Positions 34,587-37,500 of a stretch of DNA of 64,000 nt are shown in pieces; position 1 is the first letter of the stretch, and each line of letters begins with the position of its first letter. Under the pieces are notes generated by a model that saw only the letters and a program-made list of their open reading frames with translations, had not been told where the DNA came from and searched no databases. Origin of the DNA: Amoebidium appalachense (lineage: Eukaryota; Protista; Ichthyosporea). The stretch is from positions 6,450,564-6,514,563 of the forward strand of contig CAVNZM010000004.1 in assembly GCA_963693365.1 (NCBI GenBank). Direction: 5' to 3'. Both the position numbers and the translations under genes were made by a program.

Positions 34587-37500
34587 ATGTCTCAAAAACA
34601 GAGCAGTAGCGACTCAATCGAGCAGGAGAGCCTTTTGCAGCTGGCCCTGCTGACCACATTCGCACGGAAAGCACACAGCCTTGCTGAAAGGTAAGGGCAA
34701 AGTCCGTTGCACCACGCGCCTAGCATTCACACATGATTCAATACTTACCGGCCCTATCCTTCTCACTCTCGTAGCACTCGCGGAACTTCACTAACGGGAT
34801 CTGTGGATCCAGGCCTGTTTATTCAATGACAGCTCCTTTTAATCCCTAGTCCCCCCCCCCCCCCGCTCTCCCTCCCCCTTCTCCCCCTCCCCCCCCTCCC
34901 GTCCCCCACCCCCCTCCCGCCCTCATTCCCCCCATGCGCTCTCCTCACCCACGTCTTTCTTCAACCTTCCACCTGTTTTTATCTCTCCCCCTCCTCCCAC
35001 CCTCCCCCTTCCGCCACCCTTCACCTCCATCATATGGCCAGAAAGCAATTCGAAAGGATTCAGCTAACGAGTATGCCGCGCAGCTACGTGCAGCGGGCCA
35101 AGAACTCGCAGCGCAGCAGTCAGGCCAACCACGAGCGGTTGCGCAACGCCAACCTGCGCTTGCACAGCGTGTCTCAGCACACACAGCTCCAGCTCAAGGT
35201 AGGGCCAGGATTATGTGCAGTTGGGCGAAATCTTTGTGCATGACATCCGTGCGCTCGCCCTCTTCCTCCTCCCCCCTCCCCCCCTCTCCCCCTCCCATTT
35301 CTCCCTCTCTCTCTCCTTCTCTTCTTTTCTCGCTCCCTCTCTCACTCCTTCGGTCCCTCTCGATTTCTCCCTTTCCCTCCTCCCCTTTTCCTTCCTTCTC
35401 CCTCTCTCCGTTTCTCTCACTCTCTTACACACACACACACACACACACACACACACACACACACACACACACACACATTCTCTCTCTCTCTCTCTCTCTC
35501 TCTCTCTCTCTCTCTCTCTCTTCCCCCCCCCCCCCCCCCCCCCCGCCCTTTCCCCCCCCCACTCTCATACACACACACACACACACACACACACACACAC
35601 ACACACACACACACACACATTCTCTCTCTCTCTCTCTCTCTCTCTCTCTCTCTCTCTCTCTCTCTCTCTCTCTCTCTCTCTCTCTCTCTCTCTCCCCTCC
35701 CCCCCCCCCCCCGCCCTTTCCCCCCTTGACCCCCCCTCCCTTCTTTTCCTGCACGCTCTCCCCCCACCCCTGTCTCCCTCCCCCCCCCCCCCCCGGGTTG
35801 TCTCTCTATCCCTTTCTTTGCTTCCTTCGTCCCTCTTTTCCTGAGACCCTCTGACCTAGACTTAACTCTTTGAGCATTCAAAAGCGTGGTGGAAGATGGT
35901 GGCGGTGGTGTGGAGAGGAGAGGGGGAAGAAGGAGGGGCCAGGAGCGGTAGCAGAATATTTGGATACGGTGCATCTCGTCTTGATGAATTCTTGTTGCCA
36001 TGATATTGATTTTGGTCGTCGAGTGGGGCTTTATTGGGCCCCTCTTCTGCAACCACTGCATTTATTTGTTCATGCATCTCCCCCCGCCCCCCCCTCCCCC
36101 CCCCCCTCCCCCCTCCCCCCTCTCCTCAAGCGCACGGCCCCCCCCCCCCCCCCCCCCCTCTCCCCCTCCACCCACCCAAACCACCACCACCACCCCTCTG
36201 CTCAAGCAAAGTCAAACACAGTGTTGCTTTCAACATATCAGGTAGCCAGTTGAGTGTTCGTCAATAACCTGACTGTACCACTGTGTTGCCGCAGTCTTTG
36301 GCAGACCTCAAGAACCAGCTTGTTGAGCGGGGGGGTCTTATGAGCCAAATACTGCAGGTGCGCCCCAAAATTAACGTTTATAAGTAAGGTTTTCTGGAAA
36401 TTTACCAAAAACAATGTGGGTCTATTCCTGTACTTTATGGCGGATGTTCCACTTTAGCAATAACCGCTTTTTTTTGGAGCAGTCCTTTGTTATACAAGCG
36501 CCAAAACACCTTTTTTTGTGTCCTTTACTTTTGGGATAGTTAGAGGATGCCTTGAGCAATATGGCACCACTTTCGTATTTATGGGTTTTTTGGTTCCCTG
36601 GAGCTAAGTGATCGTAGCCTAAGTTCTATTTTGTGTCTCCCCCCTCCCCCCCCCCCCCCCCCCCCCCCCCCTTCAAAATGCATACTCCATATACCTACTT
36701 TTTTATTCTTTAAAAACCTTTTTTTTTGCATGTGTGTGCTTTGCAACTGGATTGTGTTGTCCTTCATGAATGTATAGTACGTCGTAACTGGTTGTGCATA
36801 ATAAACTCCCCCTCCGCCCTGTTACTCCGCTGGAGACGGGGTGCACCTGTGTTGCATCCTGTGTGTGTGTGCTCTTTTTTGTATTCCGCATAAGGATATC
36901 TGGTGTGAGGTAGTCCTTGACATTGGGTACTGCTTTCATCACCCCCCCCCCCCCCCCCCCCCCCCCCCCCCATAACTCGGACTATCGGTTTGGCTTTTTT
37001 CAAGCCCAAAGCAATGGGTGATACCATATTTCCGGCTGACATCCGGGGGCATAGCTTTCCGTTCGAAGACGTTAAAGTTCCGCCCTAGTAAGCGTGTTAC
37101 TACCCTGCGGCGTGGGTTAAATCTTATATTTTCCCCTCTGATTGCGAATTCTGCGGCCTTCGGGACTTAATTCTTTATAGCTGGTGTAGTATGTTAGCCA
37201 GGGAAGTATCGACTTAGGTAGCGACGGGGGAGCTTCCTAGAAGCCCCGTTCCCTGAGTTCCTATCTATATTTTTCTTGCTTCTGCTTACTGCTGCAACTT
37301 TAACCCCGGGCCTTTCCCACTGCCCTTGCCTGCATAAGTAACCCTGCTCGTCTCTGATCAAGACGGGTGACCTACCCATGTTCAAGTGAAACTGTATCTG
37401 AGTTGGGTTTCGTTAACGAGGTGAATAGGTCGAAACTCGGGTACTGTGGATGACGTGGGCCCCCCCTGAGGATGGGCTCTGCTTATTATGCATACTCTTT

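Follow-up and report, generated by a model that had tools for sequence, protein, structure and literature searches.

A complete hammerhead core in split strand order, predicted to self-cleave, in a likely Penelope-like retroelement

In the stretch of 64,000 nt analysed here (the window), a repeat that is likely a Penelope-like retroelement of the Naiad type carries a complete hammerhead core whose strands come in a split order, and its transcripts are predicted to cleave themselves after U37404; we give this reading a probability of about three in four. As every core nucleotide and all three stems are present, the structure is to be regarded as a hammerhead variant and not as a new class, and, judging from its sequence, it is likely to be an active new variant of a known ribozyme. 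We lean, if with little to spare, towards a wider reading: the fold would be an active seventh natural hammerhead wiring, split between A9 and G10.1 by a three-way junction, and the missing ribozyme of the Penelope-like elements with an N-terminal endonuclease; it would be common to animals and a unicellular relative, being either older than animals or moved between the two, and linked to the intact CSG type by circular permutation through the core.

The original prediction described a pseudoknotted RNA fold shared by two subfamilies of the repeat, A and B, and its outer, joining, inner and crossing helices are real. The outer stem, the CCCATGT/ACGTGGG helix, the inner stem and the crossing helix lie where it had placed them (Table 1), the last of them with two pairs that differ on both sides between A and B; GAAAC is invariant as claimed, and the copy at 24111 has the two crossing-helix mismatches ascribed to it. 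The six G-U pairs of B favour the plus strand, in agreement with the proposed use of such pairs as indicators of the transcribed strand, and the flanks are more diverged than the fold, A and B aligning at 78% over 179 nt and otherwise only over 38 nt at the 3' end.

Taken as a hammerhead, the crossing helix corresponds to stem II (6 bp) and the inner stem to stem III (9–10 bp, 10 bp in B1). CUGAGGA is preceded by stem I, which has 3 bp in B and 4 bp in A with one compensated pair; GAAA stands between stems II and III, with G37369–C37431 as G10.1–C11.1; and the NUH cut site, here GUU with the A15.1–U16.1 pair, stands between stems III and I. The contact between stems I and II would be provided by the 7-bp joining helix, which begins directly after the 5' strand of stem II, ends just before the 3' strand of stem I and has one two-sided change. 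Two hairpins had to be drawn anew. The TGATCA loop is better drawn on a continuous 8-bp hairpin (37346–37353 with 37361–37368; pair probability 0.96 in B and 0.44 in A) than on the supposed ACCC...GGGT arm, which leaves CCC 37342–37344 free for pairing with GGG 37474–37476. The CCCYCC-CTGA-GGATGGG hairpin found no support, as nothing within it compensates for Y. The partner with which Y covaries is position 37407 (G-C in B and A-U in A), so that its strand is that of stem I; the loop and the 3' arm of the supposed hairpin are the hammerhead CUGANGA.

The unusual part of the fold begins after A9. The strands are ordered as stem II strand, cleavage strand, GAAA strand and CUGANGA strand; the supported stem II strand thus lies about 100 nt upstream of CUGAGGA, and a stem II linked to A9 by no more than 1–2 nt was found only as a weak fit. 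A9 is followed by a U and three G that are able to pair with CCC 37342–37344, one base ahead of the hairpin abutting stem II, so that a three-way junction, shut by the outer stem, appears to stand in for the A9–G10.1 link. The junction helix P0 formed by this pairing has 3 bp and shows no covariation in the window.

Table 1. Parts of the fold (coordinates of copy B1) and copies of the carrier repeat in the window
Feature	Position	Strand	Remarks
Outer closing stem, 5' arm	37334..37340	+	Pairs with 37480–37486, 7 bp; U-G in B1, C-G in B2 and A1
Junction helix P0, 5' arm	37342..37344	+	Predicted; pairs with 37474–37476, one U-U apposition after A9
8-bp hairpin directly adjoining stem II	37346..37368	+	Proposed third junction arm in place of the A9–G10.1 link
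Stem II, 5' strand	37369..37374	+	G10.1 = 37369; crossing helix of the original prediction
Helix joining distal ends of stems II and I, 5' arm	37375..37381	+	7 bp with 37453–37459
Cleavage strand (block S)	37394..37407	+	Stem III strand 37394–37403, GUU 37402–37404, stem I strand 37405–37407; cut predicted between 37404 and 37405
Block G	37426..37444	+	Stem II 3' strand 37426–37431 (C11.1 = 37431), GAAA 37432–37435, stem III strand 37435–37444
Stem I–II joining helix, 3' arm	37453..37459	+	
Stem I 3' strand and CUGAGGA core	37463..37472	+	Stem I 37463–37465; core 37466–37472 (C3 to A9); stem II does not come next
3' arms of P0 and outer stem	37474..37486	+	P0 37474–37476; outer stem 37480–37486
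Copy B1 (about 600 nt), flanked by poly-C	36972..37571	+	Ribozyme-length part 37332–37491; likely 5'-truncated Penelope-like element
Copy B2, intact fold	54749..54908	-	H17 54836, G12 54808, C3 54774; element about 54963–54669
Copy A1, intact core	7018..7183	-	H17 7109, G12 7077, C3 7043; element 7345–6902 (444 nt)
Copy of A 3' end, 108 nt, directly upstream of A1	7352..7459	-	Repeats 6902–7009 with 98% identity; partial tandem resembling the pseudo-LTR of Penelope elements
Copy A2, 5' end cut exactly at stem II	24111..24354	+	Two stem II mismatches; without hairpin and closing arms
3' fragment of A	40214..40367	+	Starts just before CUGAGGA
3' fragment, B type	7648..7733	-	Starts inside CUGAGGA

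Scanning with the Rfam covariance models, as had been suggested, gave no match at gathering score. That no HDV core fits was borne out, and HDV-like, twister, pistol, hatchet and other Rfam ribozyme models also gave nothing at E values up to 10 in 37200–37620. Below threshold, Hammerhead_1 scored 14.2 bits against 34 (E 2.5) and assigned the crossing helix to stem II and GAAAC to the core. The verdict that the RNA does not fit a canonical hammerhead is thus right as to strand order only, and it may be called unrecognised in having no Rfam match at gathering score and in falling outside the six permutations of Eckert et al. 2023, but it is a hammerhead variant and no class of its own. The other proposal, an RT-recognition structure, may hold, but leaves the retention of the catalytic residues unexplained. 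Neither copy, A or B, could be fitted to the canonical types I, II and III or to the intact CSG and GCS types; the SGC permutation with intact blocks has S, G and CUGANGA in the right order, but in our fold the stem II strand precedes S.

Five pairs are changed on both sides between A1 and B1 (two in stem II and one each in stem I, stem III and the joining helix), and the core words are unchanged. In a MAFFT alignment (4 sequences, 2 lineages), 98.1% of the 158 cells pair, which was reached by 2 of 500 shuffles; this alignment misplaces the third stem I pair, for which per-copy pairing was used. Its four pairs with two-sided change were matched by 138 of 500 shuffles, and the window, covering the two lineages A and B only, is therefore thin evidence of covariation when taken alone. 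The unremarkable nested folding (z-scores of −0.72 and −1.00, no signal) is what the crossing of three helices would lead one to expect. Out of 21 CUGANGA sites in the window a descriptor of the split order found 3, each in an intact copy, and it gave 149 loose matches, 17 with a joining helix, in 1580 dinucleotide-shuffled windows; as it was written after the sequence had been seen, these chance figures, and those that follow, flatter the fold somewhat. When B was shuffled 20,000 times with the core fixed, 640 shuffles met the loosest stem limits and none attained the 30 bp of B (maximum 29), total pairing in the intact copies of the window being 30–32 bp.

The same core words were looked up in public sequences, where 257 loci were taken (119 of about 660 metagenome matches, 123 of about 2200 from viral contigs, and a further 1 and 14 from viral contigs). 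Four of them met the loosest stem limits, with 19 bp in total at most, and none of the 243 loci that had first been chosen for their core words has a joining helix; the metagenome and viral loci were rejected as relatives, being chance matches only, and a pattern scan of prokaryote genomes returned no match. Contigs from four public sequencing runs, collected at 80% likeness, vary at 20 of 160 positions, mostly in linkers or in ways that keep the pairs. Of the 17 core positions only C3 is listed as variable, at 1.4% (run X5) and 0.7% (run X15) of depth; in run X9, which has many C>T changes and was given little weight, the figure of 14% comes from one contig. For the stem II partners 37373 and 37427 the shares of change in the public-run contigs are alike (4.8% and 4.4%), and in one run a few contigs carry changes at three joining-helix positions. 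Contig depth has no step at the predicted cut; contigs cannot show RNA ends.

With pseudoknots not scored, the nested part of the model amounts to −35 kcal/mol in B and −30 in A, against predicted minima of −48 and −57, respectively. B only has a competing helix of 8 bp (37405–37412 with 37431–37438, −8.3 kcal/mol) which can hide GAAAC and may possibly represent an off state; in A, a hairpin of −6.5 kcal/mol competes over CUGA. The shortness of stem I and of P0 also counts against self-cleavage, and insertions in the core near C3 are known to impair other hammerheads (PMC3088659).

Of the four copies of ribozyme length (B1, B2, A1 and the 5'-cut A2), three have the core and the stems, and A2 is, by its sequence, likely inactive. 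B2, the fourth full copy in the window, is 98.75% identical to B. The anatomy of the repeat agrees with that of Naiad and Chlamys elements: seven copies in the window have a common 3' end and varying starts, often within the fold; a partial tandem, or pseudo-LTR, occurs in one case, upstream of A1; and poly-C flanks the copies at both ends, in keeping with insertion into a microsatellite. Contig depth on the repeat in the public runs likewise drops toward the 5' end. The repeat is contained in 20 of the 24 listed public runs, under five organism codes; none of the holders listed is an RNA run, which has no bearing on expression. In one run 7007 contigs fall on it, with a summed depth of 556,000 over the core compared with 9–21 in the listed single contigs, which points to very many copies, depth being no copy number. 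Further subfamilies have left 3' fragments at 25164 (+), 7873 (−), 14707–14779 (−), 63845–63954 (+) and 57154–57192 (−), of which two start just before CUGAGGA and have differing flanks.

The carrier is thus likely a Penelope-like retroelement of the Naiad type, 5'-truncated, inserted into poly-C and present in high copy number, a membership founded on anatomy and the common ribozyme only, since the enzyme was not found: neither a reverse transcriptase nor a GIY-YIG domain turned up in the scan of 101 of the 629 window frames. At its 5' end, B1 holds an open frame of 38 codons (114 nt; 36972–37088, +) that may be the end of an ORF of the parent element; no homolog of it was found, and one public contig reaches 226 nt beyond it.

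Poly-C, poly-G and CA tracts abound in the window, which is eukaryotic DNA and contains spliced genes that code for a threonyl-tRNA synthetase, an INSIG protein and two class IV aminotransferases. The best match of an aminotransferase exon, at 75% identity, is to the ichthyosporean Amoebidium parasiticum, the others shown having 48–61% (longer proteins only); beyond this match the closest relatives are mostly unnamed or bacterial proteins. On the strength of this one protein, the host is likely an ichthyosporean and so a unicellular relative of animals. The aminotransferase genes are head-to-head paralogs (20157–22243, −, and 23017–27145, +) with exons 77–84% identical. Between CA tracts at 49611–50111, a unit of about 130 nt is present in two copies (92% over the aligned stretch) and is perhaps another small microsatellite-targeting element, and overlapping tandem repeats of about 240–370 nt, partly bounded by poly-C, occupy 59144–60210. 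All three intact copies of the repeat lie sense-wise in apparent introns, one of them in the threonyl-tRNA synthetase gene, a setting in which rapid cutting might be thought costly to the host. The same orientation was seen in nine of nine copies or fragments with a judgeable host gene (5173–16691, −; 23082–25470, +; 36357–40600, +; 54669–55480, −), two of the four genes being oriented only via splice signals read by eye. C runs of at least 10 number 58 sense and 34 antisense in these regions, and the chance of nine sense insertions in nine is about 0.02.

In the hammerhead structure, G8 and G12 are the catalytic residues, A9 stacks on the G10.1–C11.1 pair, and a metal site is formed by the phosphate 5' of A9 and N7 of G10.1; none of these, catalysis, stacking or metal site, needs the A9–G10.1 bond itself. 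In the fold proposed here, this bond would be replaced by the three-way junction of P0, the 8-bp hairpin and stem II, the outer stem would hold the junction shut so that A9 is kept stacked on G10.1–C11.1, and the joining helix would do the job of the usual contact between loops I and II. An extra base between A9 and G10.1 occurs naturally, and a U at this place raises the rate of trans-cleavage 3–4-fold (PMC3705267); non-circular permutations of the hammerhead also cleave in vitro (PMC10085705). For other Penelope-like hammerheads it was proposed that the element RNA is set free by cleavage of a longer transcript (PMC4209133). By analogy with this model, a cut in a head-to-tail or read-through transcript would free a unit-length RNA, possibly circularised afterwards, and a reverse transcriptase encoded by a longer element outside the window would copy it from the fixed 3' end into poly-C targets. 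Such copying would give 5'-truncated copies and partial tandems, and copying of more than one unit would yield the partial tandem at A1.

The split wiring was also seen outside the window. Craig et al. 2021 (PMC8557442) find no canonical hammerhead in Naiad and most Chlamys elements, give core words 35–50 nt apart in eight families, mark only 'core' or 'half core' words, and conclude that Naiads thrive without canonical hammerheads, which might only parasitise these elements. We searched the supplement of that paper for core words and read the returned passages by eye; the search covered some words only, including the first 15 places of two words, in a text where line breaks hide matches. In at least 10 of 54 Naiad consensus records the split wiring with P0 and the hairpin could be drawn by eye, nine times clearly, with unrelated helix sequences: three are from Acropora, two from Octopus (named by file order), and five stand in parts 8, 9, 12 (two) and 19. 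Stems I, II and III of the nine clear records have 4–6, 4–6 and 5–10 bp, the joining helix 5–10, P0 3–8 and the hairpin 6–9 bp; in the part 8 record stem I has only 2 bp. Several records have the three junction helices meeting without a spacer, and one has a U-U apposition after A9 as in the window. At least seven other records, mostly of nematodes and located in parts 13–16, appear by eye to be intact type CSG with the joining helix, one of them with an extra U after A9; Eckert et al. (PMC10085705) knew this type from two metagenome sequences only. Joining a CSG ribozyme end to start and opening it after A9 results in the split form. The Chlamys passages returned by our search, which was not exhaustive, contained no split fold. 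What is new in the window is the likely non-animal host and the poly-C target.

The RNA might instead be an ordinary type-SGC hammerhead with an extra UG after A9, in which 37475–37480 would form stem II with 37426–37431 and the upstream strand would be a competitor or a switch. This is the sole intact-block fit that we found (1–2 inserted bases and a stem II of 2–3 bp); its helix in A has up to six pairs, three of them G-U, at −5.1 kcal/mol, and insertions of 1–2 nt beside CUGANGA are on record (PMC10085705). We nevertheless regard it as quite improbable: the helix is weaker than the upstream one (−2.2 against −6.7 kcal/mol in B, −5.1 against −10.4 in A), the changes of the 3' strand between A and B are compensated by the upstream strand and not by the downstream one, and in those split Naiad records that were checked, what follows A9 is paired upstream, in P0, instead of with the GAAA strand. 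The split fold, though, might have descended from a hammerhead and lost its cutting, or made it dependent on a protein, being kept as a platform on which the reverse transcriptase of the element binds or primes. The distance of the fold from the fixed 3' end, the binding region of non-LTR enzymes, is about 100–240 nt; introns tolerate intact copies in sense orientation; and minimal Penelope hammerheads cleave poorly in vitro, with other roles left possible (PMC4209133). A binding platform, however, would have no need of catalytic residues, and the catalytic positions, A15.1–U16.1 and a cut-site base other than G are kept both here and in distant Naiad records that share no helix sequence, which makes this explanation unlikely.

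It could also be supposed that the core words are coincidental and that the repeat holds some other structured RNA or a chance arrangement. The silence of Rfam at threshold, the weak folding z-scores and the core-kept shuffles that meet the loosest stem limits would be as expected under this supposition. It is strongly disfavoured by the observed pairing, which no shuffle reached, by the location of the compensated changes on the hammerhead stems and by the recurrence of the layout in the Naiad records.

If the split core is active, it breaks a stated design rule of hammerheads, namely that the CUGANGA block cannot be interrupted, from which the six permutations listed by Eckert et al. 2023 (PMC10085705) follow; the same authors know of no alignment with more than 1–2 nt between CUGANGA and its stems. 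The split hammerhead would explain the apparent absence of hammerheads from Naiads and offers a direct test of an open question on these retrotransposons, given what Craig et al. 2021 concluded on Naiads and hammerheads. Standard descriptors and covariance models miss the split fold, so many genomic ribozymes may be uncounted, and a tolerated A9–G10.1 junction would represent a new site for the engineering of switches. No description of the split wiring or of a folded Naiad hammerhead was found in open-licence PMC and bioRxiv texts, among which subscription journals are largely missing; the parts consulted of PMC10162972, PMC8370743, PMC11244446 and 10.64898/2026.07.22.740005 hold nothing on the split fold, and PMC13725137 refers, on hammerheads that have extra helices, to Weinberg et al. 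2015 (Nat Chem Biol 11:606), which is earlier than the statement of Eckert et al. 2023 on the 1–2 nt limit.

Among known systems, the type-SGC and CSG hammerheads (HRIMA-1 and its variants, PMC10085705) are like the fold of the window in the core, the three crossing stems, the order of S, G and CUGANGA, the link from a stem I strand to a stem II strand and the helix between the other ends of stems I and II. In the window, by contrast, block C is interrupted, with the stem II strand at the 5' side, CUGANGA at the 3' side and the two connected through the three-way junction and the outer stem; the linker of stems I and II has 18 nt in B instead of about 3, and the DNA is eukaryotic genomic, whereas the paper reports SGC from metatranscriptomes and CSG from metagenomes only. 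The CChMVd (+) hammerhead (PMC3705267, PMC1636495) shares a natural change at A9/G10.1, which in CChMVd is compatible with cleavage, but there it is a single nucleotide and here a two-helix domain holding the 5' and 3' ends of the RNA. The canonical hammerheads of Penelope-like elements and retrozymes (Cervera and de la Pena 2014, PMC4209133) also have their core in a retroelement terminal repeat and are likewise proposed to cut and circularise the template; they are type I, often minimal and dimeric, while that of the window is pseudoknotted, has a long stem III and could act as a monomer. The Naiads resemble the repeat of the window in 5' truncation, partial tandems, a microsatellite target and a motif near the 3' end. 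They differ from it in having animal hosts and a preference for (TA)n, where the window repeat has a likely ichthyosporean host, a poly-C target, which PMC8557442 lists for many Chlamys families, and no coding link.
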